A stretch of DNA of 64,000 bases from a virus, in IMG/VR virus record IMGVR_UViG_3300027730_001702, positions 2,269-66,268 of that record, one strand, 5' to 3'. Both the position numbers and the translations under genes were made by a program. Of this stretch, positions 12,309-56,925 are shown one piece after another (within the stretch, counting starts at the first letter, position 1; each line of letters starts with the position of its first letter). The notes under the pieces are model-generated. The model saw only the letters and a list, made by a program, of their open reading frames with translations. It was not told where the DNA came from and made no database searches.

Positions 12309-13304
12309 TTATATATTAGCTGTATCGCCAGAAAATATTATTTCACAATATTTTTTTAATTTTTTTGAAATAAACTCTTTCATGTCTTTGAAGTCGTCAA
12401 ATTTTATAAAATTTGTGTTTTCTTTCTTATTATCAAACTTAATTTTAAATATTTTTAATTTCTCTAGAATATCACATTTATTAATAATTAGCCTTGTCAC
12501 TCCAGATTTTTTAATTGCGTATTCTAATTTAGTTAAATCTAACCAGTTGGCTATCCTTTTTCTTCCTGTGGTTGTGCCATATTCTTTCCCCACTTCTATA
12601 ACTTGATTAAGTTCATTATCTAGTAGTAATGATTCTGGAAATAATGGATCTACTCCGCTTTTAGTATCATATATTTTAGCAACACCAATAATGTCTCTTA
12701 TCTTTTTAGGACTAAAGCCCAATGAGCAAGCAGAGTAAGGTAATGTTTCGCTGCTTGTTACATATGGATAATTTCCATAATTTAAATCTAACCAAAAACT
12801 TTGAGCGCCTTCACAAAGTATGTTTCCATTAAGCTCGCCATCCCAAATATATTTTTTATCTAAATAATATTTAGCCAGTTTTCCTGTTCTTAATGCTTTA
12901 TCTGCATAACATGGTGCAATTCCTTGTCCAGTTGTCCCTAGTTTAGGTTTTAAAAATTTAAGATCATATTCAATGTGTCTTTGAGTAATGATATGAGCTT
13001 TTGGGCTAACTTTAATTAAAGAAGTATCAAAACCTTCGTTATCTAAGTACTCTATTTCGTCAAAAAATTTATCAATATTAATGACACAATTTGGACCTAT
13101 TATGCTAGTTTTATTTTGGAAAACTCCGCAAGGAATAATATGAGTTTTATATTTTTTATCATTAATATAAACTGTATGCCCTGCGTTTGGCCCACCATTC
13201 CAACGACAAACGATATCATAATTTTTAGATATTGCATTACTTATCTTGCCTTTTCCTTCATCTCCCCAACATAAACCAAAAATAACATCAACTGCTTTTA
13301 TCAT
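12309..13304 (-). CDS. purA: adenylosuccinate synthetase (short form), copy 1
   Basis: WGDEGKG, GGPNAGHT, GTTGQGIAPCY, EGAQ, YPYVTSS, GTTTGRKR, NKCD. Confidence 0.95.
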   Translation of the reverse strand: MIKAVDVIFGLCWGDEGKGKISNAISKNYDIVCRWNGGPNAGHTVYINDKKYKTHIIPCGVFQNKTSIIGPNCVINIDKFFDEIEYLDNEGFDTSLIKVSPKAHIITQRHIEYDLKFLKPKLGTTGQGIAPCYADKALRTGKLAKYYLDKKYIWDGELNGNILCEGAQSFWLDLNYGNYPYVTSSETLPYSACSLGFSPKKIRDIIGVAKIYDTKSGVDPLFPESLLLDNELNQVIEVGKEYGTTTGRKRIANWLDLTKLEYAIKKSGVTRLIINKCDILEKLKIFKIKFDNKKENTNFIKFDDFKDMKEFISKKLKKYCEIIFSGDTANI

Positions 13305-13535: not shown

Positions 13536-13922
13536 TTATCTCGCTGGTTGTGGTTTTGGTCTTAACTGATTATACATTTGATTGTATTTATTCACATCTT
13601 CAATTTTATTAGCATCCATAATAAGGAAAGCTTTTTGACCTAATCTAAAATTTTCATTTTCCTTCGCAGAAATGACTCCTTGCATTCTTGATCTTAATTT
13701 CGAATCTTGTGTTAATGATAGACTATTTTTTTGCTCTTGCAATAATTTGTTGTATCTTTTATTAGATTCTATTTGAGTCTTAACAATATGATATTCTGCT
13801 CCGCGAGTTACATCATCGTACTTCTGATAAGTCGTTTGAGCTTTAGAGCCAGAGATAGTTATAATTAAAGCTAAAATAGCTAAAATAATTGATTTAATAT
13901 TTTTATAATTTACCATGTGCAA
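13536..13922 (-). CDS. signal-peptide-bearing hypothetical protein
   Basis: Hydrophobic N-terminus ending SKA|Q. Confidence 0.6.
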   Translation of the reverse strand: MHMVNYKNIKSIILAILALIITISGSKAQTTYQKYDDVTRGAEYHIVKTQIESNKRYNKLLQEQKNSLSLTQDSKLRSRMQGVISAKENENFRLGQKAFLIMDANKIEDVNKYNQMYNQLRPKPQPAR

Positions 13923-15003
13923 ATCCCTCGTACATGCTATTAGGACTATTTTTAACTGCTGTAATTTTATCTGTCCATAATCCTCCTCGCATATCTTTCA
14001 TATTTCTAAAGCCTAAATAACTCATCGCGCTTCTTAAGCCGTTAGCAAAATCATAAACTATATCTTCTATTGATTTATCAAATAGTGGGATTAAAGTGTT
14101 ATCTCCTTCTACAAATAAATTCTTTTTTGTTCCATCATGGAGTTCGTAATCTTCTACTACATCTTTACTAGCCATTCCTCTGTACTTTGCATATCTTATT
14201 CCATTTTTTTCAATTATATCTTCTTCATCAACTATATCTGATAATCCAGCGAAAATTCTTCCACAAATAACTGCGTCACAGCCACTTGCTATAGCTTTAA
14301 CTAAATCTTTCGGATATCGAATACCTCCGTCAGCTAAAATACTCGGTCTATGTTCTGGATTTGGTTTATCTTGCTTAAATAAATCTACTTGAGAAAGTTC
14401 CCAATTTCTTACGGCTTTCCAAGCGTAATAATTTCCAGTTAAACTTGGGCAACCTATTCCTGTTTTGACTTGAGTTAAACACATTGATCCTGGACCGATT
14501 AAATGTCTAAATCCATCCGCTTTTAAATTAGCTAGTCTATAAACGCTTTCTTTTGTTAATGTATTACCAACAATAATGTCTTGAGAAAATCCAGCTGTTT
14601 TAAACCACCTAAGAAAATCTTCTACATTTTTAGCTAAACCATTTGCTGTATCAAGAAAATAAATATCAGTATAAGTACTTGTCTGTCTTATTCTTTCTTC
14701 GGCATCTTTTAATCCAATTGCGTTTATAGAAAATCCGCTTTCATCTTTAATTGTTTTAGATTTAGATCTTTGATCATCGATACTCATAAATCGATGCAGT
14801 ACTCCAGCCGCGCCAATTTTATTCATTTTGATACAAGATTTAACAGTTGATACTGTATCCATTGGAGATAATATCAATGGAATTTTTATATAGTTTTTTC
14901 TTGAAATCTTTGCTGTTGTATCTATTTCTTTTCTAGACGAAATGTCTGAAAAATTTGGTAGTAGTGATATATCGTCGTAACTTAAAGCTTCAACAAATCT
15001 CAT
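13903..15003 (-). CDS. guaB: IMP dehydrogenase / GMP reductase family (no CBS domains)
   Basis: SPMDTV, IGPGSMCLT, ADGGIR, YRGMAS, VEG, GLRSAMSYLG; GuaB versus GuaC not resolved. Confidence 0.8.
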   Translation of the reverse strand: MRFVEALSYDDISLLPNFSDISSRKEIDTTAKISRKNYIKIPLILSPMDTVSTVKSCIKMNKIGAAGVLHRFMSIDDQRSKSKTIKDESGFSINAIGLKDAEERIRQTSTYTDIYFLDTANGLAKNVEDFLRWFKTAGFSQDIIVGNTLTKESVYRLANLKADGFRHLIGPGSMCLTQVKTGIGCPSLTGNYYAWKAVRNWELSQVDLFKQDKPNPEHRPSILADGGIRYPKDLVKAIASGCDAVICGRIFAGLSDIVDEEDIIEKNGIRYAKYRGMASKDVVEDYELHDGTKKNLFVEGDNTLIPLFDKSIEDIVYDFANGLRSAMSYLGFRNMKDMRGGLWTDKITAVKNSPNSMYEGFAHGKL

Positions 15004-15340: not shown

Positions 15341-15686
15341 GGTATTTCATTAATATTACACTTATATAATATAATATTAAAGAACCAAAAAAATTCAAAA
15401 ATATTATACTATATATTGAGATAAATGGATAACTTAGTATATTTAGCCATGTATTTAGACAAACTGGACATGATAATAGCTTGGTGAAAAAATTATTATA
15501 TTCAATACTTAAAAATATAGGATATTTGACATCTGAATATTTTTTCTTGAATTCTATATATCTATTTAGTTTTAAAAATTTATTTAAAATAGGTATTTTC
15601 GTGCCATATTCATAAAGTGCCTCTGTTTTAAACCATATCAAAAGAACAAAAGCGTTAATAAAGATGAAATATAAATCATTAGCCAT
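15321..15686 (-). CDS. membrane protein with CxxC (DUF1360-like)
   Basis: TM segments and KLLSCPVCLNTW. Confidence 0.6.
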   Translation of the reverse strand: MANDLYFIFINAFVLLIWFKTEALYEYGTKIPILNKFLKLNRYIEFKKKYSDVKYPIFLSIEYNNFFTKLLSCPVCLNTWLNILSYPFISIYSIIFLNFFGSLILYYISVILMKYHDREES

Positions 15687-16102
15687 TAAGCATTATACTT
15701 AATAAGATCAATATCGTAAAATTTAAATATATCTAAAGACTTTTGATCTCGATGATATTCTTCTAGATATAATACTTTTTCAATCCCATAAGAGGCTATG
15801 CTAATTGCACATGATGAACATGGTAGTAGACTTGTGGCAATTAAATATGGTTTATCATATCTAGATATACAGGATAAAGCGTTTGTTTCAGCATGAATGA
15901 CAAAAGCTCTTCTTTCATCTCTATCGTCCCAAAAAGTAATATCTATTTGTTTTTTACTTGTTAAACCGTTGTATCCTATACTTAATAGTCTCCCGTCATT
16001 ATTTAATATAGCGCATCCAACTTTTTTATATAGATCTTCTGACCTTTCTGACGCTAATAAAGCAAATTTAATTGCCATATCTTCAAATGAAATTCTTTCC
16101 AT
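15686..16102 (-). CDS. dCMP deaminase
   Basis: KVGCAI, GYNG, HAETNA, PCSSC. Confidence 0.9.
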   Translation of the reverse strand: MERISFEDMAIKFALLASERSEDLYKKVGCAILNNDGRLLSIGYNGLTSKKQIDITFWDDRDERRAFVIHAETNALSCISRYDKPYLIATSLLPCSSCAISIASYGIEKVLYLEEYHRDQKSLDIFKFYDIDLIKYNA

Positions 16103-16179: not shown

Positions 16180-16773
16180 ATGATAGGTATAACAGGAGTA
16201 GCAAGATCTGGAAAAGATACATTTTATGGTATTCTTGCTAAATATTTTGAGAACAAAAGTTTGAAAGCTAAGAGACTTGCTTTTGCAGATAATTTGAAAA
16301 AAGAACTAGGCCCATTTGTAATCGAAAAATTTAAAATAGACTTAGCGAATTGCTCAAACGAAGAAAAAGAATTAGTCCGTCCATTAATGGTTTCTTACGG
16401 TAAATGTAGGAGATCTCAAACAGAAGGTAAATATTGGACTTCATTATTAGATATAAAAATAAAAGAATTTAATCAAAAAAATATAATACCAATCATTACA
16501 GATGTTAGATATATAGAGTATAAAGAGGATGAATATTCTTGGCTGAAGAATTATAATGGAATTTTAATACATTTATGCAGAAAATTAGACGATGGAAGTC
16601 TTGTGCAGCCAGCTAATATAGAAGAAAAAGCTAATGACAATAAATTAAAAGCTGTAGCAGATTTTTGTATAAGTTGGGATACTTGCCAAGACACTAATTT
16701 TTTGTATGAGTTAATGGAGAAAAATTTAGAAAAAATATATGAATTATACACAAGACATAGACTTAATAATTAA
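16180..16773 (+). CDS. deoxynucleoside monophosphate kinase
   Basis: IGITGVARSGKDT, FADNLK, IITDVRY. Confidence 0.85.
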   Translation: MIGITGVARSGKDTFYGILAKYFENKSLKAKRLAFADNLKKELGPFVIEKFKIDLANCSNEEKELVRPLMVSYGKCRRSQTEGKYWTSLLDIKIKEFNQKNIIPIITDVRYIEYKEDEYSWLKNYNGILIHLCRKLDDGSLVQPANIEEKANDNKLKAVADFCISWDTCQDTNFLYELMEKNLEKIYELYTRHRLNN

Positions 16774-17338
16774 AGTAAAAGAATCAGCTGATAATGAATC
16801 TTTAAAAGAATTGTCTAATCGACATAGCGGTATATATAACGAAATGGTAAAAAAATACTACAGACATTTAGTAACTACTGGTCTAAATCCAAATGATATT
16901 ATTTCAGATAAAATGTACATTCTATATAAATCTGCTATGAGTTTTAATCCAGATAAAAATGTAAAATTTTCTACATGGCTAGGAAATCAAGCTAGGTATT
17001 ATTGCTTGAATTGTATGAATAAGAACAATCATTTAATCGCTATGGAAAATAACGATATAAGACTTATTTTAGAAAAAAAACAAACTAACGATAGTTTCGA
17101 CTCAAATCTATTAAAAGAAAAATGCGATTTAATATTTTCAATTCTAGATAGAGTAAAAGACGACCGCTTAACTAAAATATATAAAATGAGGTATTTTTCT
17201 GGTAAAAAATTAACTCCTTGGAGTAAAATAAGCGCAAAATTAAAATTGAGTACTCAAACCGTTATTAATTTACATAATAAAGGTAAAAAACTTTTAAAAA
17301 ATAAGTTGACAACTAAGAATAATATTGATATAATCTAA
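16739..17338 (+). CDS. RNA polymerase sigma-70-like factor
   Basis: Region 2-like FNPDKNVKFSTW; C-terminal HTH WSKISAKLKLSTQTVINLHNK. Confidence 0.75.
   Translation: MNYTQDIDLIIKVKESADNESLKELSNRHSGIYNEMVKKYYRHLVTTGLNPNDIISDKMYILYKSAMSFNPDKNVKFSTWLGNQARYYCLNCMNKNNHLIAMENNDIRLILEKKQTNDSFDSNLLKEKCDLIFSILDRVKDDRLTKIYKMRYFSGKKLTPWSKISAKLKLSTQTVINLHNKGKKLLKNKLTTKNNIDII
17306..17334 (+). promoter_or_regulatory. sigma70-type promoter
   Basis: TTGACA-N17-TATAAT, ending 9 nt before the ATG at 17344. Confidence 0.75.
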
Positions 17339-19153: not shown

Positions 19154-21400
19154 ATGAATGTAAAAAAAAGAAATAATACTACTGAAAAATTTGACATAGA
19201 AAAAATTAACAAAGTTATTAATTGGGCTATAGATGGTTATAGTGGGGTAAGTCTAACAGACGTAGAAATTAACGCTAAAATAAATATCACTGATGGCGTT
19301 CATACAAAAGAAATTCACGGTTTATTAATTGAAAGCGCAGCAAATTTAATCTCTATAGAAAAACCAAATTATCAATATGTTGCCGCTAGACTTCTTAATT
19401 ATCAATTAAGAAAAGATGTGTGGAAAGGTAAGCATGCACCAAGGCTTTCTGAATTTATAAATAACGGTTTAAAAAATAAAATATATGATCCTATTATTCT
19501 AGAAAAATATACAGAGGATGAAATAAATAAACTAGGAGAGATTATAGATCACGAAAGAGATTTTATATTTACATATGCTGGGGTAAAACAATTATGTGAT
19601 AAGTATTTAATAAAAAACAGAACCACTCAACAGATTTATGAAACTCCACAATTTGCATATATATTAATTTCTGCCTATGCATTTATTAATTATCCAACTG
19701 AGACTAGGCTATCTTATGTTAGAAAATTTTATGATGCTATTAGCAAGCACAAGATAAATTTACCAACTCCAATTATGGCAGGAGTAAGAACCTCCAGTAA
19801 AAATTATGCAAGTTGTTGTTTGATTGGAGTAGACGATACAAGAGAAAGTATTACTGCTAGTGCTACAGCGGTTAGTATGGCTACAGCAAATAGATGTGGA
19901 ATTGGAATTGATGTTAGTAAAATTAGAGCAATTGGTGCGCCGATTAAAAATGGAGAAGTTGTTCATACTGGTTTAATTCCATTCTTAAAAATTTATGAAA
20001 GTAGCGTAAAAGCTTGGCAACAAAATGGACTAAGAGGTGGAAGTGCAACCTGTAATATCCAATGGTGGCATTACGAAATTGAAGATATCATAGTTTTGAA
20101 AAACAATGCTGGAACAGATGATAATCGTGTTCGTAAACTTGATTATACAGTTGGCATGAGTAAATTATTTTATGATAGGGTTTTAAAAGACGAAGATATC
20201 ATGCTATTTAATACTGCCGAAGTACCAGAGCTTTATGAAGCTTGGGGAACAAAAGATTTTGACAAGATTTATAAAGAGTGTGAATCTAAAAAACTAAAAA
20301 TTAAAAAGAAAATGTCTGCTAGAAAATTATTCTCTTTAATTGTAAAAGAAAGAGTTGAGACTGGAAGAATTTATATTCTAAATGTAGATCATGCTAATAA
20401 TCATGGAGCATGGTCCGATAAGGTCACTATGAGCAATCTTTGCACAGAAGTTATTCATCCTACAATTCCGCTTAATGATTATCATGATAAAAATGCAGAA
20501 ATTGGTATGTGTATTCTTTCAGCAGTTAATATGTTAGAAGTAAAAAACTGGCAAGATTTAGAAAAAGTTTGTGATTTAATCGTAAGATTTCTTGAAGAAA
20601 TTATAGATATTCAAGATTATTTTAACACTGCTGCTGAAAATTTTGCTAAAAAACGTAGAAGCCTTGGAGTTGGAATTACAAATCTTGCTGCTTTTCTTGC
20701 TAAAAATGAATTAAAATATAATTCAGATAAATCTCTTTCAGTAATAGACGAATGGATGGAACATTTTCAATACTATCTTTTAAAAAGTAGTTGCCAGTTA
20801 TCTAAAGAAAAAGGTAGATGTGAAAAGTTTGAAAATACTAAATACTCTAAAGGCATATTACCAATAGATACATATAAGGATAAAATAGATGAATTAGTGA
20901 AAAGAAAACTATCACTTGATTGGGAAAAATTAAGAAAAGATATTAAAGAGTTTGGATTAAGACATTCCACTTTATCTTCTTGTATGCCTTGTGAGAGTAG
21001 TTCGGTTATTCAATCTTCTACAAATGGTGTTGAGCCAATTCGTAGTCTGATTACTTATAAGACAAGTAAGATGGGTAAACTTCCAGTTATGGTTCCAGGA
21101 ATTGGAAAATATGATCATAATTATGAATTAGCTTTTGATTTTAAAGATAATTTAGGCTTACTAAAAGTTAATGCTGTGATTCAAAAATATATTGATATGG
21201 CTATTTCTACTAATGTATACTATAATTATAGTCACTATGATAACCATATATTACCAGATAGCAAAGTTATGAAAGAAATAATGTATGCTTATAGCCTTGG
21301 ATTAATTAGTTTATATTATAATAACACAGATGATGGAGATAAAGAACAATCTATGATACAAAAAGAAGATGACTGTTCTAGCGGAGCTTGTAAGCTATAA
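19154..21400 (+). CDS. nrdA: ribonucleotide reductase class Ia alpha subunit
   Basis: ATP cone (VKKRN), TPIMAG, SCC, SNLCTE, MPCESSS, C-terminal CSSGACKL. Confidence 0.97.
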   Translation: MNVKKRNNTTEKFDIEKINKVINWAIDGYSGVSLTDVEINAKINITDGVHTKEIHGLLIESAANLISIEKPNYQYVAARLLNYQLRKDVWKGKHAPRLSEFINNGLKNKIYDPIILEKYTEDEINKLGEIIDHERDFIFTYAGVKQLCDKYLIKNRTTQQIYETPQFAYILISAYAFINYPTETRLSYVRKFYDAISKHKINLPTPIMAGVRTSSKNYASCCLIGVDDTRESITASATAVSMATANRCGIGIDVSKIRAIGAPIKNGEVVHTGLIPFLKIYESSVKAWQQNGLRGGSATCNIQWWHYEIEDIIVLKNNAGTDDNRVRKLDYTVGMSKLFYDRVLKDEDIMLFNTAEVPELYEAWGTKDFDKIYKECESKKLKIKKKMSARKLFSLIVKERVETGRIYILNVDHANNHGAWSDKVTMSNLCTEVIHPTIPLNDYHDKNAEIGMCILSAVNMLEVKNWQDLEKVCDLIVRFLEEIIDIQDYFNTAAENFAKKRRSLGVGITNLAAFLAKNELKYNSDKSLSVIDEWMEHFQYYLLKSSCQLSKEKGRCEKFENTKYSKGILPIDTYKDKIDELVKRKLSLDWEKLRKDIKEFGLRHSTLSSCMPCESSSVIQSSTNGVEPIRSLITYKTSKMGKLPVMVPGIGKYDHNYELAFDFKDNLGLLKVNAVIQKYIDMAISTNVYYNYSHYDNHILPDSKVMKEIMYAYSLGLISLYYNNTDDGDKEQSMIQKEDDCSSGACKL

Positions 21401-22070
21401 AATTGATTTTATTATTATTGTAAAGTATAATTATATAATGAAGTATTACGCTCAAATTGGACAAGATAAACTTGTAGATTTTATGTTTAAAAATAAAGAA
21501 AATGGATTCTTTATAGACATTGGCGCGCAGGATCCAGAAGATCTAAATAATACTTCTTTTTTTGAAAAATATAGAAATTGGAATGGAGTAGCAATTGAAA
21601 AAGCTTCTATGTGGAACGATAAATGGGCTAGTTCTTCTAGAAAAAAAACTTTATATATTAATAACGATGCAAGGTCTATAGATTATAAAAGCATATTAAG
21701 AGATAATAGTTTAGATGTCGTAGATTATATATCTTTAGATTTAGAGCCGCCACAAGTTACTTTTGATGTATTAAAAAATATAATAACACAAAATATAAAA
21801 TTTAAAGTTATGACTTTCGAGGTAGATGCTTATAGATCTGAAGATATTAAAAATAGATCAAGAGATCTTCTTAGTTCTAATGGTTATGAATTAAAATATG
21901 AATTATATTTTACTGATAACACTCTTAAAAATGCTCATGTAGATGATGTTTGGATTAATAAAGATTATATTAAAGACTTCAATTTTTTGAATATTAGTTG
22001 TAATAAACTAGAATTTAACTTTATTTTAAATGAATTTACAAATATAGATGAAAACAGTTTTAAACTTTAA
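21369..22070 (+). CDS. FkbM-family methyltransferase (probable start 21438)
   Basis: YAQIGQD, FIDIGA, YISLDLE. Confidence 0.8.
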   Translation: MTVLAELVSYKIDFIIIVKYNYIMKYYAQIGQDKLVDFMFKNKENGFFIDIGAQDPEDLNNTSFFEKYRNWNGVAIEKASMWNDKWASSSRKKTLYINNDARSIDYKSILRDNSLDVVDYISLDLEPPQVTFDVLKNIITQNIKFKVMTFEVDAYRSEDIKNRSRDLLSSNGYELKYELYFTDNTLKNAHVDDVWINKDYIKDFNFLNISCNKLEFNFILNEFTNIDENSFKL

Positions 22071-23112
22071 AAACATAGATACTACGAAGCAGCCATTGTT
22101 TCTTGGTGAAGATTTGAATCTTCAGAGATATGATAGGTTTAAGTATCCGATATTTTTTGAATTATTTAAAAAGCAAAATGAAAATTTTTGGTGGCCACAT
22201 GAAATAGCTTTAGGCAAAGATCGAAGTGATTATAAAAATTTAACAGATACAGAAAGATTTGTGTTTGATAGTAATTTACGATTCCAAACTCTTGGAGACA
22301 GTATGTTATCTAGAAGTATACATTCCCTTAAAGATTATGTTTCTAATCCAGAACTAGAAATATGTATGAACACTTGGGCTCAATTCGAAGGCATTCATTC
22401 TTATTCCTATTCTTATCTTTTGAATAATGTTTATCCCGACCCTACAAAATTTTTTGATAGTATCATGGAAGATAAGGAAATAACAAGTCGCGCTCAATTA
22501 ATTAGGGACAATTTTGATAAAATTCTTGGTAGCGATGAAAAGAAAGATCCTAAACAAAAGATTTTTGATGCTATTCTTTCTATTAATGTAATGGAAGGGC
22601 TTGTGTTTTATGTTTCTTTTGCTTGTTCCTTTTATTTTGGATATAGAGGAAAGATGGAAGGTAACTCTAAGATTATTAAGTTTATTCAAAGGGATGAGGC
22701 TCTTCATTTTGCAGTGTCTCAAAACCTAATGAAAATATTAAGGGACGAAGATAAAGAAGGTTTTACATCCCTTGTAAAGAAAAATGAAGATAAGATATAT
22801 GCTTTTTATGAACAAGCTGCAAAGAATGAAAGTGAATGGTCTCAGTATCTCTTTAGTAAAGGTAGTTTACTTGGATTAAATGCTGACGTTTTAGATGGCT
22901 ACTCTAAGTGGCTTTGTGATAGCAGACTAAGAAGCTTGGGTTACAAGAAGATATTTAATCAAAAAGATAACCCTATTGCTGGGTGGCATGATAGCTATTT
23001 AGACAGTAGTAAAGTACAAGTTGCACCACAAGAAACAGAGATATCCAGTTATAAAGTCGGCGCAAGAAAAACTGACATCGAAGACAAGGATTTTTCTGAT
23101 TTAAAACTGTAA
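22048..23112 (+). CDS. nrdB: ribonucleotide reductase class I beta subunit
   Basis: FWWPHE, EGIHSYSY, EGLVFYVSF, RDEALH, APQETEISSY. Confidence 0.97.
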   Translation: MKTVLNFKNIDTTKQPLFLGEDLNLQRYDRFKYPIFFELFKKQNENFWWPHEIALGKDRSDYKNLTDTERFVFDSNLRFQTLGDSMLSRSIHSLKDYVSNPELEICMNTWAQFEGIHSYSYSYLLNNVYPDPTKFFDSIMEDKEITSRAQLIRDNFDKILGSDEKKDPKQKIFDAILSINVMEGLVFYVSFACSFYFGYRGKMEGNSKIIKFIQRDEALHFAVSQNLMKILRDEDKEGFTSLVKKNEDKIYAFYEQAAKNESEWSQYLFSKGSLLGLNADVLDGYSKWLCDSRLRSLGYKKIFNQKDNPIAGWHDSYLDSSKVQVAPQETEISSYKVGARKTDIEDKDFSDLKL

Positions 23113-23556: not shown

Positions 23557-24555
23557 TTGATGGTAAATCATGTAGATATTATATTTGGATTAGCTTGGGG
23601 CGATGAGGGCAAAGGCAAAATTAGCAATGCAATTAGCAAAAATTATGATATAGTTTGCCGTTGGAATGGTGGTCCAAATGCTGGACATACAGTATACTTA
23701 GGAGACAAAAAATATAAAACACATCTTATTCCTTGTGGAATTTTTCAAAACAAACTTAGCGTTATTGGCCCAAATTGCGTTATTAATATTGATAAATTTT
23801 ACGATGAAATAGATTATCTTAAAAAAGAAGGATTTGACACATCGTTAATTAAAGTAGGTCCAAAAGCTCATGTTATAACAGAAAAACATATTCAATATGA
23901 TCTTAAATTTTTAAAACCCAAACTTGGCACAACTGGTCAAGGTATTGCTCCATGCTATGCAGACAAAGCTTTAAGAGTTGGTAAACTTGCGAAGGATTAT
24001 CTAGATAAAGAATACCTTTGGGACGGAGAACTATATGGCAATATTCTTTGTGAAGGTGCACAGAGCTTTTGGTTGGATTTAAATTATGGAGATTATCCGT
24101 ATGTTACGAGTAGCGAAACGCTTCCATATTCTGCTTGTTCTTTGGGATTTAGTCCAAAGCTTATCAGAGATATTATTGGAGTAGCAAAAATTTACGATAC
24201 CAAAAGTGGAGTAGATCCATTATTTCCAGAAACTCTTTGGGAAGATAATGAATTAAATAGTTTGATAGAGCTAGGAAAAGAGTATGGCACGACCACTAAC
24301 AGAAAAAGATTAGCTAATTGGTTAAATTTTTATAAATTGCAAAAAGCAATTAAAATATCTGGCACAACCAAGCTTATTATAAATAAATGTGATATTTTAG
24401 ATCAACTCAATATTTTTAAATTAAGATTTGACAACTTAAGGGACGGACCTAATTTCATTAAATTCAATAATTTTGATAATATGAAAGAGTATATAAAAAA
24501 CCAACTTAAAGATTATTGTGATGTAATTTTTTCTGGTAATAAAGAGTATATATAA
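23557..24555 (+). CDS. purA: adenylosuccinate synthetase (short form), copy 2
   Basis: WGDEGKG, GGPNAGHT, EGAQ, GTTTNRKR, NKCD; colinear with copy 1. Confidence 0.95.
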   Translation: MMVNHVDIIFGLAWGDEGKGKISNAISKNYDIVCRWNGGPNAGHTVYLGDKKYKTHLIPCGIFQNKLSVIGPNCVINIDKFYDEIDYLKKEGFDTSLIKVGPKAHVITEKHIQYDLKFLKPKLGTTGQGIAPCYADKALRVGKLAKDYLDKEYLWDGELYGNILCEGAQSFWLDLNYGDYPYVTSSETLPYSACSLGFSPKLIRDIIGVAKIYDTKSGVDPLFPETLWEDNELNSLIELGKEYGTTTNRKRLANWLNFYKLQKAIKISGTTKLIINKCDILDQLNIFKLRFDNLRDGPNFIKFNNFDNMKEYIKNQLKDYCDVIFSGNKEYI

Positions 24556-26522: not shown

Positions 26523-27038
26523 GTGATAGTATCAGAAAGAGATATAGACTTTTTTGCTAAAAAACTAGGACTATCTTTAGAAAAAACTTTTTTATTGATT
26601 CAAGATCCAGATTGTTTACCAGAAATATTAAATAAAATATCAGAAACAAATATAAATGGAATAGTAGATATAAGCTTTCCAGTATTTGCAGAAATAACAA
26701 TTATTAAATATGCAAAAGATTTAAAATATTCTTTTGAAGAAAAAGAGTATGTTTCAGAGAGTATTGGTAATAAATTTTATGATTTAATAGAGTATCCAGT
26801 AACAGATAAATCATTCTTTGAACTCAAAAAAGATGAAGATACAGCTAGATCATTATTAGTTTTCTTAGGATTCTTTTATAAAAGTTTAAATAAAAGAAGA
26901 AGAGCTTATCCTTCAGAGAAAATCTATTACAATATAGCTAAAGATGGATTTAAAAATTCAGACAAAATACAAGTATCAGAACATCTACAAGATTGGATTA
27001 AAGTATTAAGAGTTATACATAATGAAGTCTGGTTTTAA
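26523..27038 (+). CDS. hypothetical protein
   Basis: ORF track; GTG start 8 nt after ATGTAA. Confidence 0.65.
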   Translation: MIVSERDIDFFAKKLGLSLEKTFLLIQDPDCLPEILNKISETNINGIVDISFPVFAEITIIKYAKDLKYSFEEKEYVSESIGNKFYDLIEYPVTDKSFFELKKDEDTARSLLVFLGFFYKSLNKRRRAYPSEKIYYNIAKDGFKNSDKIQVSEHLQDWIKVLRVIHNEVWF

Positions 27039-27039
27039 T

Positions 27040-27368
27040 ATATCTCTCTGAATTATTTAACTTTTCTTTAATATCCAAAAGGGCTTTACCTCTAGATAAG
27101 ATATATCTGAGGTTAAGTATTATCAATCCAACTTTTCTTTTAACTCCAATTTTTGCTTCGATCTCAGAAGCAAACGGGCCATCGCACTTATGGATCAGAG
27201 GTAGCTTCGATCACTACATTCTGCGATGCCTTTAGCTACATTCCCTTCTTTAGCCATATTATGTACAAATGAAGGTTTTAATAGTTGTCAGCCCTTATGA
27301 CATTGCTATCTCAGGGATTGATAGTTGATTTTTTGACATCAACAAACTGTCCTATTTGGGAACTATGT
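27040..27368 (-). ncRNA. candidate structured non-coding RNA with several pseudoknots
   Basis: No long ORF; GC-richer than flanks; many stems found by eye; sigma70-type promoter directly upstream. Confidence 0.55.
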
Positions 27369-27374
27369 TGACTT

Positions 27375-27403
27375 ATAATATATTAAACTTGATCTTTTGT
27401 CAA
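27375..27403 (-). promoter_or_regulatory. sigma70-type promoter for the candidate ncRNA
   Basis: Minus strand TTGACA-N17-TATTAT. Confidence 0.65.
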
Positions 27404-27424: not shown

Positions 27425-27634
27425 ATGGAAGTGATAAAAAATAAAGCTAGATGGACAGTTTACTCATATAAATGCATAAAACATTACAATGTATCTAACG
27501 AAAATATCTATGACGAGCCAAATGAATATCCATGCCTAGCCGTACCTCAGTTAGTTTCAGATATTAACGGCGCAAGGATTAAATTTAATTTTGTTTATAA
27601 AAAAGATTGTGAAAAACTATTAAAAGCTTTATAA
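27425..27634 (+). CDS. hypothetical protein (likely start MEVIKNK at 27425 rather than 27356)
   Basis: ORF track; TATAAT ends 4 nt before this ATG. Confidence 0.6.
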   Translation: MEVIKNKARWTVYSYKCIKHYNVSNENIYDEPNEYPCLAVPQLVSDINGARIKFNFVYKKDCEKLLKAL

Positions 27635-27663
27635 TGTGTAAGCTAGGTTAGTTCTTTCTTATT

Positions 27664-28049
27664 GGGCCCGTACTGGTTTCGATTTTAGAGATACGAATTA
27701 AAATGCAAGTGGAGGTTGAATCGTGGACTCCTTAAAAAGTTTCACTTATATTAACTGCCAAAAAAGCAAAATATAAAGGTCACATTTCAGCAAGAGTTTC
27801 TCTTGTTGAGCTGACCGCTTCTGTAGCTTAAGTTACAGCGTGATACCCTTGAAGCATCTATTGGGATATTGCGTAATTAGATGTTTGATTATAAAGAGTT
27901 TTTTTATTCTTTTTATACTCAATATTAAAAATAAAATCGCTAAGTATGTTTGTTGTTTATCTATATAAAGCTAAAAACAAAAACGACTAAACTTGTAGTA
28001 TTTTAATTTAAATTTTTAAAAGACAGAGGTTCAATTCCTCTCGGGTCCA
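27664..28049 (+). ncRNA. ssrA: tmRNA
   Basis: GGGCCCG/CGGGTCC-A acceptor with G3:U70, GGTTTCGA, T arm AGAGG-TTCAATT-CCTCT, TAACT|GCC resume context and tag ORF 27757..27831. Confidence 0.93.
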
Positions 28050-28114
28050 AGTTAAATATCTAATAAATTATTTAAGAATTAGATTTTAGCATTAAAAAAT
28101 GTGTATATAATATT

Positions 28115-30292
28115 ATGGCCGAAGATAAAAAAATTGTAGTATTCGGAGACGGTACAAAAGATACCAATCTTGAGAGCGCAGGGTCCTGTGCAAATTGTTC
28201 TACTTATAATGGAGCAAGTAGCCCATTTGTATTTACTCCTATTAATCTTACTTATAAGATTAAAGCTAAATACATTTATGCTAAAGACGGAAGCGAAGAT
28301 ACTCTAGCTTTGACCCCTAACGGAGATACCTACGTTGAGTATAACCTTATGTCAATAGAAAGTATTGATAAAGGAGCCGAAGGAAAAAATGCAGCAGAAG
28401 AATTAAAGAATTATTATAACGACGAGCTTGATCAAGGCGGTGGAGAAGAAGAAATGACAATAGGTTTCGCAGAAAAAGTAATAGCAGAGTTCCATACAGA
28501 ACTATCAAAGTCAAAATGGAAAACTTTTTTTGAAAAGGTAATTAAAAATAGCATAAAGACAGAAAATCTTTTAAAATCAACATTTCAAGATTACATTAAT
28601 CATGATTTTATTACTGACCATAATAGAAAAGCAATATCTTATAGCGGTTGGAGCGGAAACTCAGTTGAAAAAACTTACTCAGTTAAAGTAAATGTAGGCG
28701 TGAAACCAAAATTTTTAAAAAGTTGCACTTTAGAAGACGACAAAAGCAGACTCACGCTAACTAAACCAGAAAAAAAATTCTGTAAAGCATTTTTGGCTGT
28801 CATAGGAGAAGAGAAAGAATTATCAGATGATAATTTTTTATTTGAAGTCACAGATCAATACTCTGAGCCAACTCCAAGAGGATTTTTCGCAACTACTGCT
28901 CTTGGGAAAATAGAAGATCTCGATACCAATGAAAAGTTAATCACTCCTGCTACCATGCTACAAACTACACGAGATTATGAAAAGTTATTAAAAGATGGCG
29001 CTTTTGCTGGTTTTCAAGGAGCGGCAAGTAACGGTGGAGGTCCATTTAAATTTAACAGCGAAGAAAAAGCTTGGAGTATAGGTGCGCAATTCGGAAGTAC
29101 TCGAGTAGAAGTCGAAGCAGATATGAGTGGAGGTCAAGCAAAACAAGATATCTACGTTAGATATAAAATGGCTATTGGTCCTGACGGTAAAATAGGCCAA
29201 ACCACAGTAACTATAGGAGGAAGAAAAGCATCTCTTGGATACGCTCTTCAACAGATTGCTAAAAATATGCAAGGTTGGCTGCATCAGGTCTGGATGTCTT
29301 GGCACAAACCCAATGATTCAAGCAGCTTAGCTGCGGTAGAGCTAGCTGAGGATAACGCTGACAAAGTTAAGGACAAAACTGAAAAATTAAAAGATGACGC
29401 GGAGGTAGCTGCAGACAAGATAGCCGATGCTGCTGGAGCTGTTGCAGGCGCTACCCCTGAGACCGCTGCTGCTGTGGCCCAACAACTGGCATCTGTTAAG
29501 GCCGCGGCTGAGCAGGCAAATACTGCAGCAATTGCTGCACAGACCGAACAAACCATTCTATCAACAGGCTCAGGATCTAATCCCGTAACTTCTAACACAA
29601 ACGAGGGGAACATAAGCAAGGCAGTAACTCAGATTGGTCAAACCATACAACACTTAGATACCGTCATAGAAAATCTTGGTACTGTCCCAGCTAACCTTCC
29701 AGCCGCTCAATCATCAATGACTGCGGCAGTAAATAAATCAGCAGAAGCTAGTAACACAGCAACTGAAGCTGACACCAAAGCCACAGAAGTAAAAACAGAC
29801 GCAACTGGCCTCGTAAACGTCGTTAAAAATCTCACAGAGATAGCAGGATCAGGAAGAGATGTTGATCCAGACACAAGAAATATGCTAAATACATTTGGGG
29901 CGAAAGTCGAAGAGGCTAAAAATGTTGTAAAAGATATAGTAGCTGATAATAATAAAACAGTACCACCAGATTTAATAGATAAGATTGGTGAGGTAATAAC
30001 CCCTGTTCCAGAGGGTAATATACCAAAAACTTCCACACCGAAATCAGATCTTGAAGCCGACACTAGCATAGATTCAGGTGATACAACAAAAGGAAATACT
30101 TCTTTTATATTTAAAGGTTCGGCCACGGAAACACCAAATCCAATATCAACAATTGGAGCTAACGAAGGAGAGGGTTTTAAATCTGATAATAACGAAGGGT
30201 GGCAGAATCCAGAATCCGTAGGATTTCTGCAATTTAAAATAACACCCGCAAATGAGGATAACGAACCACAAAATGGAAAGTTTTCTCAATAA
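28115..30292 (+). CDS. large protein with Ala-rich coiled-coil region, probably virion-associated
   Basis: 725 aa ORF; GTGTAT 8 nt upstream; GC-richer Ala/Thr segment. Confidence 0.65.
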   Translation: MAEDKKIVVFGDGTKDTNLESAGSCANCSTYNGASSPFVFTPINLTYKIKAKYIYAKDGSEDTLALTPNGDTYVEYNLMSIESIDKGAEGKNAAEELKNYYNDELDQGGGEEEMTIGFAEKVIAEFHTELSKSKWKTFFEKVIKNSIKTENLLKSTFQDYINHDFITDHNRKAISYSGWSGNSVEKTYSVKVNVGVKPKFLKSCTLEDDKSRLTLTKPEKKFCKAFLAVIGEEKELSDDNFLFEVTDQYSEPTPRGFFATTALGKIEDLDTNEKLITPATMLQTTRDYEKLLKDGAFAGFQGAASNGGGPFKFNSEEKAWSIGAQFGSTRVEVEADMSGGQAKQDIYVRYKMAIGPDGKIGQTTVTIGGRKASLGYALQQIAKNMQGWLHQVWMSWHKPNDSSSLAAVELAEDNADKVKDKTEKLKDDAEVAADKIADAAGAVAGATPETAAAVAQQLASVKAAAEQANTAAIAAQTEQTILSTGSGSNPVTSNTNEGNISKAVTQIGQTIQHLDTVIENLGTVPANLPAAQSSMTAAVNKSAEASNTATEADTKATEVKTDATGLVNVVKNLTEIAGSGRDVDPDTRNMLNTFGAKVEEAKNVVKDIVADNNKTVPPDLIDKIGEVITPVPEGNIPKTSTPKSDLEADTSIDSGDTTKGNTSFIFKGSATETPNPISTIGANEGEGFKSDNNEGWQNPESVGFLQFKITPANEDNEPQNGKFSQ

Positions 30293-54119: not shown

Positions 54120-54347
54120 ATGGGCTCATTAGACAATGTTTACGATACTATACAAAAATTAGAAGACCATGGAATAGAATATCTTCTTATAACCATAGAA
54201 AAAGGAAAGAAGCAGGGTAAAGCTGATGTATTTTACAGCTTAAAAGATAGAGCTTCTATGAAAATTCTAGCAAAAGGATTGGATGTTTTTAATCAAGAAA
54301 TAGATAAAATTGAAAAAGAGCAAGAGGAAGATGAAAATGAAGACTGA
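54120..54347 (+). CDS. small acidic hypothetical protein
   Basis: ORF track; lies within the polymerase operon. Confidence 0.6.
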   Translation: MGSLDNVYDTIQKLEDHGIEYLLITIEKGKKQGKADVFYSLKDRASMKILAKGLDVFNQEIDKIEKEQEEDENED

Positions 54348-56925
54348 CAACTACTCCAACGCAAAAGATTTTTCTGATCAATTCGAAAATATAGAGCTAG
54401 ATATTCACGGGGTTAGATTGCCTGAGTTTGAGATTGATCTAGCCTCTAAAAGACATTTAGGTGTTAGTGAGGATGCATCAAACTATGACTTTTTAAGAGC
54501 CTTAACATTAAACGGATTTAAAACTTTAAATATTAATAAAGCTGATAAGGATTACAAGAGGTATATCGATAGGGCAAAATATGAATTAGACACGTTAAAA
54601 GAGTTAGGGTTTATTGATTATATATTATTAGTATGGGATGTTATACATTTTTGTAAAACTAGTGATATTCCAGTGGGTTTAGGCAGAGGTTCGGCCGCAG
54701 GGTCTTTGATATTATATTTAGTGGGCGTTACCAGAATTGATCCAGTTAAATATGATCTCTATTTTGAAAGATTTATATCCAAGATTCGCGCTAAAAAACA
54801 GATTGTTGATGGGGTAACGTATTTAGATGGTAGTTTGATGTGCGATGTAGATTTAGATATTTGTTATTATAATCGTCAAAAAGTCCTTCAATATTTAGAG
54901 AATAAATTCAAAGACAAAACTAGCAAGATATTAACCTTTAATAGTTTAAGTGGAAAATTGCTTATTAAAGAATGTGGTAAAATCATTGCTGAAAAACCAG
55001 AGCAAGAAATGACAATGATATCTTCTTTAATTCCTAAAACCTATGGCCAAGTTAAGGACATCTCAGAAGCCTATAAAGAAGTTGAGCAATTTAAAGAGTG
55101 GTGCGATCAAAATAAAGAAGCATATCAAGTCGCCCTTAAATTAAGAGACTTAATCAAGAATAAAGGAGTTCATCCTTCTGGCGTATTACTTTCTTATTAC
55201 GATTTAGAGACTATCTGTCCAACAGAATTCTCTTCAGACAAAGAAATCGTATCTAGCTTCGATATGAACTGGGCAAGCGTTTTTAACATAAAGCTTGATA
55301 TTCTTGGCTTAAGAAGCGTTTCTGTAGTAGATAATGTTTGCAAGAGCATTAATCTAAAAATAGAAGATATAGATTTAAATCATGAATCTATTTATAGAAA
55401 TTTACAGGATTTAAAATCGCCACATGGTCTATTCCAAATCGAAGCAGAAACTAATTTTAGGGTATGTCAAAAAGTTAAACCAAAAAATCTAGAAGAACTT
55501 AGCGGTGTTCTAGCTTTAGCTAGACCTGGAGCTCTTCAATTCGTAGATAAATATGCAGCTCATACAAATTTTCAACAATCAGAAAGTATTCATCCGTTTT
55601 TTGATGAAATTTTAAAACAAACTGGCGGGGTTGCTTTATATCAAGAGCAATTAATGAAAATGGCTAATAAGATTGGTTTTAATTTAGATGAAGCAGAAAT
55701 CTTAAGAAGAATCGTGGGTAAAAAGAAAACGGAAGAAATCAAAGCTTGGAAACAAAAGATCGAACAAAAATGTAAACAAAATAAAATTCCAAAAGAAGTT
55801 AGCGAAATTTTATGGAAGCTTCTTGAAGATTCTGTTAATTACTCCTTTAATAAATCGCATTCAATAGCTTATGCTGGACTTGCAGCAATTACAATTTATC
55901 TTAAGTTTAATTATCCTCAACAATTCTTTTTATCATTATTAAAGATGAGCAGGAATGAACCAGATCCAATTGGCGAAATATCTAAAATTCAAAAAGAAAT
56001 GCATAACTTCGGGATCAAACTCCTTCCTCCTCATATTATTAAATCAGAAATGGATTTCTCAATTGAGGATAAAGACATTAGATTCGGTCTATTATCAATC
56101 AAAGGTATTAGCGATAAATCAATAGAAAAATTGAATAGCTTTAGAAATAAATATTCTAATAAATTTGAAATATTTGAAGCTGCAGAAGAAGCTGGATTAA
56201 ATATTGGAGCATTATCTGCATTAATTCAAGCTGGCGCACTTAGTGGGTTCAATCAATCAAGAAGTAAAATAGTACTAGAAGTTCAATTATGGAACATGCT
56301 AACCTCTAAAGAGAAGAAATACGCTATATCATTTGCAGATAAATTCGATTATGATCTAATTAAAATTATTAAACATCTTAATAAATTCACTGACGAAAAA
56401 AATAAAGTGGTTATTAAAGATAATAGATTGAGTACCATTAAAGAAAAGTATACTCCATATTTGAGCATATATGAGCAAAATAATAAAAGTGAAAGCTTTG
56501 CTAATTGGTATTACGAAAAGAAGCTTCTGGGATATACTTATAATAAAAATCTAAAAGATATCTTTGCTGAGAAAAGAGAAAATCTTAAATATATATCTGA
56601 TATATTAGATGAACCAGTAAACTCTAAAGTAGCTTTAGTTGGTCAAATAGAAGAGGTATTTTCTGGAATATCCAAAAATGCAAAAAAGACAAGATATGTT
56701 AGATTAAAGATATCAGATGAAACAAGCACCATTAGCGCATTAATATTTAACGATAATATCGACACAAATAAACTATTAAATAATAAAAATTTTGAAGAAG
56801 GGAATATTGTTATAGTAAAAGGTTCTAAAAGAGATGATTGTATATTTGGTGATTTAATAGCTATTCAAGATCATGAGATATACATGAAATTAAATGATTT
56901 AAAAAAGATAGATAAAAATAATTGA
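54310..56925 (+). CDS. dnaE: DNA polymerase III alpha catalytic core (lacks PHP)
   Basis: GRGSAAGSL, LYFERF, CDVDLD, HPSGV, KLDILGL, FNKSH, C-terminal OB fold. Confidence 0.93.
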   Translation: MKKSKRKMKMKTDNYSNAKDFSDQFENIELDIHGVRLPEFEIDLASKRHLGVSEDASNYDFLRALTLNGFKTLNINKADKDYKRYIDRAKYELDTLKELGFIDYILLVWDVIHFCKTSDIPVGLGRGSAAGSLILYLVGVTRIDPVKYDLYFERFISKIRAKKQIVDGVTYLDGSLMCDVDLDICYYNRQKVLQYLENKFKDKTSKILTFNSLSGKLLIKECGKIIAEKPEQEMTMISSLIPKTYGQVKDISEAYKEVEQFKEWCDQNKEAYQVALKLRDLIKNKGVHPSGVLLSYYDLETICPTEFSSDKEIVSSFDMNWASVFNIKLDILGLRSVSVVDNVCKSINLKIEDIDLNHESIYRNLQDLKSPHGLFQIEAETNFRVCQKVKPKNLEELSGVLALARPGALQFVDKYAAHTNFQQSESIHPFFDEILKQTGGVALYQEQLMKMANKIGFNLDEAEILRRIVGKKKTEEIKAWKQKIEQKCKQNKIPKEVSEILWKLLEDSVNYSFNKSHSIAYAGLAAITIYLKFNYPQQFFLSLLKMSRNEPDPIGEISKIQKEMHNFGIKLLPPHIIKSEMDFSIEDKDIRFGLLSIKGISDKSIEKLNSFRNKYSNKFEIFEAAEEAGLNIGALSALIQAGALSGFNQSRSKIVLEVQLWNMLTSKEKKYAISFADKFDYDLIKIIKHLNKFTDEKNKVVIKDNRLSTIKEKYTPYLSIYEQNNKSESFANWYYEKKLLGYTYNKNLKDIFAEKRENLKYISDILDEPVNSKVALVGQIEEVFSGISKNAKKTRYVRLKISDETSTISALIFNDNIDTNKLLNNKNFEEGNIVIVKGSKRDDCIFGDLIAIQDHEIYMKLNDLKKIDKNN

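Follow-up and report, generated by a model that had tools for sequence, protein, structure and literature searches.

What is encoded by the roughly 320 nucleotides (nt) that lie 3' of a promoter, and hold no credible reading frame, in the genome of an uncultured lake phage? We addressed this question in a 64,000-nt stretch of DNA, referred to below as the window, which covers positions 2,269 to 66,268 of the IMG/VR virus record IMGVR_UViG_3300027730_001702. The record is 66 kb long and is estimated to be 43% complete, and the segment in question is present in it once. An initial annotation, made from the sequence alone, had described a minus-strand promoter (TTGACA-N17-TATTAT at 27375-27403), no open reading frame (ORF) beyond one of 14 codons and a series of RNA stems, and had proposed a new class of phage non-coding RNA, a ribozyme or decoy RNA, that is transcribed away from a transfer-messenger RNA (tmRNA) gene. 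We found that the promoter is present as described, with the -35 box TTGACA at 27403-27398, a 17-nt spacer and the -10 box TATTAT at 27380-27375, matching 11 of 12 consensus positions. The tmRNA gene is indeed divergent, at 27664-28050 on the plus strand. We assign a probability of about 0.95 to the presence at this locus of a stand-alone gene for a non-coding RNA of approximately 318 nt (27368 to 27051, minus strand), belonging to an uncatalogued family.

The candidate RNA gene and its relatives

A promoter scan alone gave no more sites in the region than expected by chance (8 versus 11.0 +/- 3.2), and the folding energy of the single sequence was mildly unusual (z = -2.2), as 3 of 100 shuffled sequences folded equally well. 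Since both are weak when taken alone, the case rests on the comparison with relatives. Using the neighbouring 171-aa protein, we retrieved 32 IMG/VR loci, 23 of which carry the whole stretch with 85-99.7% nucleotide identity; the remaining loci carry diverged or displaced parts of it. A conserved 17-nt motif retrieved 102 stretches, and nhmmer confirmed a full-length RNA in 84 loci, including the window, which represent 51 distinct sequences in clades A (37, including the window), B (9) and C (5). With a two-motif pattern, 81 stretches were found in contigs from lake and other metagenomes; 78 were true members and added 43 new distinct sequences, and the other three were chance matches in seemingly coding sequence. 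Together, the IMG/VR phage contigs and the lake metagenomes supply 94 distinct homologues, which fall into three clades. A covariance model (R1; 316 positions, 65 pairs) matched the sources of all 94 with 204-374 bits, and yielded the alignment A3.

In the window, R1 matched 27052-27368 with 360.4 bits, in accordance with the conservation profile. The 5' end of the RNA is inferred from the promoter and the onset of conservation, and the 3' end was set where conservation stops; RNA nt n corresponds to window position 27369-n. Among the 94 sequences, the length ranges from 307 to 327 nt and the G+C content from 0.33 to 0.38 (0.35 in the window), as compared with 0.28 for the surrounding genome. 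Like a stand-alone small RNA gene, the stretch has its own promoter conserved among homologues: all three clades retain TTGACA and a TAnnAT-like -10 box, and the spacer sequence varies. In several other loci, an AT-rich hairpin with a U tract, identified by eye, stands directly 3' of the RNA. The gene is single copy in all three large records searched (134, 136 and 172 kb).

Further searches added no full-length member. The two-motif pattern had no match among one genome each of 185,579 prokaryote species, and blastn gave no match in 50,697 GenBank phage records. A scan of IMG/VR with the motif of the second purine tract (unit 2, described below) yielded 48 new loci with no new full-length member and with truncated copies in three of them, and a search with a neighbouring 69-aa ORF led to clade A loci only. 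In three partial relatives with the 171-aa gene, the RNA was not seen in the recovered parts, which are uninformative on absence as the genomes are 35-54% complete. The family is so far confined to uncultured freshwater phages, whose near-complete genomes measure 134-172 kb.

At the gathering threshold of Rfam, the whole window matched only the tmRNA and two transfer RNA (tRNA) genes. When 1.3 kb and 341 nt around the gene were searched at E<=10 with lax filters, none of the 4227 families fitted; the matches comprised only eukaryotic snoRNA, miRNA and lncRNA models and one plant-virus element (14-24 bits, E 2.6-7.7). Detectable membership of RNase P, 6S, SRP, tmRNA, the introns and the small ribozymes, as well as of ROOL, GOLLD, OLE, raiA, HEARO and pRNA, is ruled out by the lack of any match to Rfam 15. 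Full-text literature searches returned no description of this RNA. A set of candidate structured RNAs (DNAVirus_N) shares with our work the IMG/VR data source and a covariation approach in intergenic phage DNA; its members span 29-151 nt (PMC10690425), so that at most a part of the present RNA could be among them. A 2026 preprint on Minerva concerns a different, reverse-transcriptase-linked array. The RNA class is new with respect to Rfam 15, GenBank phages and the literature searched, and may yet work like a known kind of RNA. The proposal of a new phage RNA class is supported by covariation, by the strand it named, by RNA libraries and by the lack of an Rfam family or a published description.

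To which strand the conservation belongs can be read from the pairs themselves. Canonical pairs amounted to 96.0% on the minus strand of the window and 86.7% on the other, with 736 G-U as against 42 A-C cells. Since G-U is tolerated and A-C is not, the functional strand is the minus strand, as the promoter implies and as the initial annotation had stated. The same counts disfavor the alternative raised there, a DNA-level element such as a replication origin. That reading, or that of a small protein gene, would account for a gene-free region with a G+C content of 0.35 against 0.28, and for an antisense stretch without stop codons of 42-97 codons. However, relatives with 89% identity to each other have the antisense stretch in different frames, the lengths differ by non-multiples of three, and no reading frame is kept among the homologues, the start of the 14-codon ORF being absent in clades B and C; the antisense stretch is a by-product of the purine-rich sense strand. 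Contigs from RNA libraries also cover the gene, and we regard the absence of an RNA gene as hardly credible.

These libraries come from lake water. We found that 13 lake-water metagenome runs contain at least half of the sampled words of the stretch, and that six metatranscriptome runs contain small shares. Contigs from all four lake metatranscriptome runs examined, from four studies, cover 27146-27357 (RNA nt 12-223) with 0-2 differences, and represent presence in RNA libraries rather than a mapped transcript. Other contigs in the same runs cover the tmRNA, at a far higher word depth than that of the RNA gene. The flanking ORFs and RNA nt 224-318 have little or no contig cover, which is evidence neither of silence nor of a 3' end.

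Fold, pseudoknots and purine tracts

Helices were identified by an unbiased scan for runs of compatible columns in an alignment made with MAFFT only (A2), followed by explicit counting. In A2, 94.3% of the cells were paired and 43 of 79 pairs changed on both sides, as compared with 32-49% and 13-19 pairs in slid controls. In A3, which holds the 94 sequences and is fitted to the nested helices, with the pseudoknots PK1 and PK2 outside the model, 96.0% of 7483 pair cells were standard and 49 of 81 pairs changed on both sides. None of 500 shuffles reached these values, and slid controls gave 33.4-50.0% paired cells and 13-19 pairs. Up to five pair types occurred at single pairs, reflecting the three clades and variation within them. 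Covariation shows a fold that is compact and well determined, with at least 11 helices and two or three pseudoknots.

All of the following elements are on the minus strand. The 5' end is predicted to form the hairpins P1 (27349-27363, nt 6-9/17-20; 99.7% paired, 3 of 4 pairs changing on both sides) and P2 (27324-27343, nt 26-31/40-45; 87% paired, 4 of 5). The long-range helix P3 (27121-27323, nt 46-54/240-248; 87-100% paired), in which all nine pairs change on both sides, closes a multi-helix core that holds P4/P5, P6 and a knotted domain of P8 and P9. P4 (nt 59-63/85-89; 97% paired) is placed around P5 (nt 67-70/80-83; 96%) at 27280-27310, and the P5 loop (AAGGGCU, nt 73-79, 27296-27290) pairs with AGCCCUU at nt 284-290 (27079-27085) to form PK1; in A3, 99.7% of its cells are paired, and both sides change at 4 of the 7 pairs. 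P6 (27244-27275, nt 94-98/121-125; 92.8% paired, 4 of 5) carries a conserved UUGU...GCU element in its apex, where some members of clade C lack the apical hairpin. The knotted domain (27177-27239) consists of PK2, in which GUAGCU (nt 130-135) pairs with AGCUAC in the P9 loop (nt 163-168; 97.3% paired, 2 of 6), P8 (nt 139-147/183-192; 98.0%, 3 of 9) and P9 (nt 157-161/172-176; 98.5%, 4 of 5). These are followed by the variable hairpin P10 (27152-27174, nt 195-202/210-217), with changes on both sides at 8 of 8 pairs, and by P11, a hairpin with one bulge (27088-27113, nt 256-264/272-281; 92.4% paired, 5 of 9).

The pairings proposed in the initial annotation fared unevenly against this comparison with 94 homologues. 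Eight of the 12 show compensatory changes, namely GTTGAT/ATCAAC, TGTCA/TGACA, CCTTC/GAAGG, CATCGCA/TGCGATG, GATC/GATC, TTTGCTTC/GAAGCAAA and both parts of ACCTC-AGAT/ATCT-A-GAGGT. The other four, CTATC/GATAG, the kissing loops CCCT/AGGG, TGGCTA/TAGCTA and GTAG/CTAC, break in clades B and C, and only one of their 19 pairs changes on both sides, as in shuffles. The kissing loops and one of the two H-type pseudoknots are therefore replaced: the AAGGG loop pairs instead with AGCCCUU in PK1, and GUAGCU with AGCUAC in PK2. The main long-range helices, P1, P3, PK1, PK2 and the contact of the P1 loop described next, had been absent from that account.

The loop of P1 (CCAA, nt 10-13, 27359-27356) is complementary to two sites, nt 291-294 (98.4% paired) and nt 220-223 (95.2%), and the pair types AU, UG and UA arise in parallel at both. 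Similarly, the P5 loop is complementary not only to its PK1 partner but also to nt 189-193 (97.4% paired, 2 of 5 pairs changing on both sides); this site is weaker, with a mismatch at one pair in clade C (12 cells), and nt 191-192 can extend P8 instead. The P1 loop probably pairs with nt 291-294, thereby extending PK1, and we prefer a composite contact of 11 base pairs (bp), in which one 3' strand (nt 284-294) would bridge the P5 and P1 loops. A helix P0 (nt 22-25/293-296), which is 100% paired and never changes on both sides, was dropped as the preferred pairing because the competing contact between the P1 loop and nt 291-294 is better supported.

All 94 sequences agree at 104 of the 317 positions, and 60 of these invariant positions are unpaired. 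Invariance extends furthest in three runs, AAAAGAAAAGU (nt 228-238), GGAUAU (nt 293-298) and AAAGAAAAGU (nt 300-309), which lie within two purine tracts on the minus strand. Unit 1 (27131-27149, nt 220-238) reads UUGGAGUUAAAAGAAAAGU and is unpaired in the model, and unit 2 (27060-27078, nt 291-309) reads UUGGAUAUUAAAGAAAAGU, its UUGG probably pairing with the P1 loop. Each tract, taken with its GGA-containing head, is one of two 17-nt repeats (GGAGUY-AAAAGAAAAGU and GGAUAUY-AAAGAAAAGU) with a spacing of 71 nt. In both cases, the sequence that precedes the tract is complementary to the loops of the same two hairpins, P5 and P1. To judge from the conservation, the two invariant single-stranded tracts look like the working end of the RNA. 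The best duplexes of the tracts with the phage tmRNA, at approximately -8 to -15 kcal/mol, fell at different places across 10 loci; a 10-bp match to the region 5' of the resume codon in the tmRNA of the window showed no covariation and was rejected. Further occurrences of the tract motif in the window were not tellingly placed.

Gene neighbourhood and the host phages

Three genes flank the RNA gene in the window. A 171-aa ORF (26523-27038, plus strand) is convergent with it. On its other side, a divergent 69-aa ORF (27425-27634, plus strand) lies 5' of the phage tmRNA gene (27664-28050, plus strand; Rfam RF00023 with 108.5 bits, also found by ARAGORN). A promoter-like site for the tmRNA (27607-27635) overlaps the 3' end of the 69-aa ORF. 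By tblastn, the 69-aa product shows 75-78% identity in clade A and 43-51% in clade B, and a partial homologue stands beside the tmRNA in two clade C loci (L053 and L091). The protein has no Pfam family and an Atlas look-up gave no lead. We regard both the 69-aa ORF and the tmRNA as frequent neighbours of the RNA gene, the former not being shown to be its partner.

We counted neighbours upstream in 85 distinct loci with at least 800 nt of upstream sequence, and downstream in 91 with at least 700 nt. Upstream and divergent, both the 69-aa ORF and the tmRNA were present in 50 of the 85 loci, the ORF only in 9, the tmRNA only in 5 and neither in 21; the ORF thus adjoins the RNA gene in 59 loci, and the tmRNA lies within 800 nt in 55. 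Downstream, the convergent 171-aa gene was found in 50 of the 91 loci, nrdA-nrdB on the same strand approximately 120-140 nt away in 11 (clade C), a same-strand 328-aa gene in 2 and other arrangements in 28. In 10 of 12 sampled loci of the last group, the next gene is again convergent, and is often preceded by an AT-rich hairpin with a U tract. The next gene is on the same strand in only 13 of the 91 loci. Such a gene order, with convergent or varied downstream genes, excludes that most members are leaders or riboswitches, and suggests instead a trans-acting RNA.

In clade C, the RNA is found at another locus, upstream of nrdAB, and a tmRNA, identified in two clade C loci, is 6.6-10 kb away from it there. 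When one clade C phage was compared with the window, the tmRNA was 92% identical and the 171-aa gene 81%, whereas the RNA was only 72% identical, indicating that the RNA types move as cassettes with their own promoter. The region is mosaic, and only some of the relatives have the 171-aa gene. In locus L047, the 328-aa gene stands directly 3' of the RNA on the same strand, and in L019, approximately 1.3 kb with a copy of a 124-aa ORF lie between the 171-aa gene and the RNA. In the spacer between the RNA and nrdA in L053, L091, L070, L039 and L052, nrdA is preceded by a T-rich tract and by a conserved palindrome resembling ACACT-N5-AGTGT, and a related ACACTT element occurs upstream of the RNA promoter in clade C. 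Judging by eye against the NrdR consensus, we take these elements to be possible NrdR-box-like operators.

Several other features of the phage were observed in the window. A nucleotide-metabolism cluster (12309-13304, 13903-15003 and 15686-16102 on the minus strand; 19154-23112 and 23557-24555 on the plus strand) includes nrdA/nrdB and genes resembling those for GMP reductase/IMPDH and for dCMP deaminase. It also contains two short paralogues (331 and 332 aa) that resemble adenylosuccinate synthetase but score below all curated PurA cut-offs. The paralogues also match the PurZ model at approximately 100 bits (cut-off 300), and may point to a modified adenine in the DNA. A 199-aa sigma-70/ECF-like sigma factor (16739-17338, plus strand) scores 42.5 bits against a superfamily cut-off of 42.9. 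For the tmRNA, an unusual tag, AKKAKYKGHISARVSLVELTASVA, is predicted; a gene for SmpB was not found in the record, which at 43% completeness is uninformative on absence. Directly 3' of the tmRNA is a 725-aa ORF (28115-30292, plus strand), in a stretch with a G+C content of 0.38 as compared with approximately 0.28, for which Pfam and PHROG gave no family and an IMG/VR pattern search no relatives. Genes for tRNA-Ser (anticodon ACT according to ARAGORN) and tRNA-Asn lie at 235-410 on the minus strand, 27 kb from the RNA gene. A DnaE-like DNA polymerase (54310-56925, plus strand) is less than 30% identical to anything in the 50,697 GenBank phage records; the phage lineage is one without a cultured relative in that collection.

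Possible roles and comparison with known RNAs

What might such an RNA do? We propose that the folded core is a scaffold which would display the two unpaired, invariant purine tracts 71 nt apart, that one conserved partner, either a host or phage protein or a nucleic acid, would be bound by the tracts as two copies or as a dimer, and that the RNA would serve as a ribonucleoprotein (RNP) core or a sponge made during infection. We put the probability of this trans-acting mechanism at roughly 0.35-0.4, and it is offered tentatively. Several points weigh against it, or against the evidence on which it builds. The RNA has no known partner and no constant neighbouring gene, its 69-aa neighbour being without a family, and the invariant purine joiners may just as well make A-minor tertiary contacts or belong to a catalytic core. 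The invariance of the tracts is partly built in, because most homologues were found with patterns that contain a tract; a pattern restricted to the 5' domain re-found 54 loci, all known through tract 1, and two more cut at contig ends, and the set based on the 171-aa protein has both tracts in all three clades, each of these controls covering fewer sequences. The nested helices of A3 are model-fitted, and the shuffle statistics overstate independence, since the sequences share ancestry. In the window, no terminator-like site was found 3' of the RNA. Finally, the contigs from RNA libraries give no strand, ends or level, and DNA carry-over into such libraries is possible.

The duplicate acceptor sites raise the main alternative, which we consider unlikely, namely that the RNA forms an RNA-only quaternary assembly or a conformational switch, some of the covarying pseudoknots being intermolecular contacts from which a dimer, ring or cage would arise. 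Both nt 284-290 (99.7%) and nt 189-193 are complementary to the P5 loop, and nt 291-294 and 220-223 to the P1 loop with the same three pair types at the latter two sites, so that the loops may choose between partners at two co-evolving sites. A self-complementary hexamer, with wobble pairs allowed, is present in the P6 apex of all 94 sequences, a weak lead since such hexamers are common in AU-rich RNA and stand at different places in clades A/B and clade C. The RNA type diverges faster than the phage backbone (72% identity versus 92% for the tmRNA), which would fit type-specific self-recognition, and there is a precedent in ROOL, where a contact first called tertiary from covariation proved quaternary (PMC12286853). 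However, covariation cannot separate pairing in cis from pairing in trans, the second sites are the weaker ones, with the clade C mismatch at nt 189-193 and the competing extension of P8, and an RNA of about 318 nt is roughly half the size of the 659-nt ROOL RNA studied. We give a similarly small chance to the further step that the family is a third, much smaller class of self-assembling phage RNA, with contacts of the P5 and P1 loops that are intermolecular or flip between acceptor sites. If so, it would assemble type-specifically into a dimer, ring or cage, or would act as a switch between two states, each exposing one of the purine tracts to capture a host factor during infection, and types A, B and C, which are exchanged between phages that are otherwise nearly identical, would be unable to assemble with one another.

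A new ribozyme, cleaving itself or acting in trans, for example on stable RNAs encoded by the phage, is less probable still. Most bacterial RNAs of such complexity with a known function are ribozymes or RNP cores, and a large, multiply pseudoknotted RNA with 60 invariant unpaired nt, adjoined by a tmRNA gene in 55 of 85 loci, would be in keeping with catalysis. Yet no ribozyme family of Rfam was matched even at E<=10, no substrate is evident, and the phage tmRNA shows no conserved complementarity to the RNA, the best duplex sites differing by locus. We regard as very improbable a cis-acting 5' leader or riboswitch of nrdAB in clade C, or of the 328-aa gene in some clade A phages. Such a leader would suit the placement of the gene in a nucleotide-metabolism region and the 11 and 2 of 91 loci, respectively, in which these genes follow on the same strand, but the next gene is convergent in 50 of the 91 loci and in 10 of 12 sampled further loci. 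In addition, by eye, the AT-rich hairpin and U tract come directly after the RNA in several loci, and the clade C spacer before nrdA has promoter-like and palindromic elements of its own. The trans-acting scaffold or sponge is the reading that we prefer over these alternatives.

Compared with known RNAs, the candidate combines several partial likenesses. The context of the 3' strand of PK1, GAGGUAAAGCC, is reminiscent of CR-I of RNase P, an RNA characterized by a long-range P4 helix in a CR-I/CR-V context and by the architecture of its catalytic domain; the RNase P models do not match, and the partner strand lies in a 5'-proximal hairpin loop, which is a different topology. Sponges such as CsrB and RsmZ, and the Hfq-binding RNAs with A-R-N repeats, present short single-stranded motifs repeated on a folded RNA. 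By these motif rules, the present RNA is similar in having GGA next to each tract and in that AAGAAAAGU reads as three A-R-N triplets; it differs in having only two sites, a far more elaborate conserved fold and an invariance that extends beyond the positions read by those proteins. The pRNA of phi29-type phages is also a structured RNA made from a strong promoter, and its loops make covarying intermolecular pairs that build a ring. The resemblance ends there, as the present RNA has no match to the Rfam model of pRNA, no link to packaging genes was seen, and its phages have genomes of 134-172 kb with a DnaE-like polymerase and are not small protein-primed phages.

The tmRNA (SsrA) is similar in size and shares several pseudoknots, A-rich single-stranded stretches, a strong promoter of its own and presence in the same RNA libraries. 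In contrast to the present RNA, it is recognized by the tmRNA model; here that model gave no match, neither a pairing of the ends like an acceptor stem nor a conserved frame was seen, and the two genes are not always adjacent. ROOL and GOLLD are phage RNAs that are often found near tRNA islands (PMC12286853). Like them, the present RNA is stand-alone, non-coding and highly structured, with several pseudoknots, has a stable-RNA gene as neighbour (tRNA islands there, the tmRNA here), lacks an assigned function or protein partner, and has covarying loop contacts that could be intermolecular. It differs in its fold and in its two invariant purine tracts, is not matched by their covariance models and, at about 318 nt, falls short both of approximately 550 nt and of the lengths described for these RNAs, the ROOL studied having 659 nt and GOLLD often exceeding 800 nt. 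The hints of a homo-oligomer, namely the duplicate acceptor sites and the self-complementary hexamers, are indirect and are read from the nucleotide sequence.

Bacterial and phage RNAs of such size and complexity are rare, and nearly every such class with a known function is a ribozyme, an RNP core or, lately, an RNA-only nanostructure. The present family offers 94 natural variants and a candidate working end, and its size suits cryo-electron microscopy, chemical probing and pull-downs. Since its hosts are abundant uncultured lake phages with their own tmRNA, the function of the RNA may bear on how large phages handle the translation or defence of their hosts.

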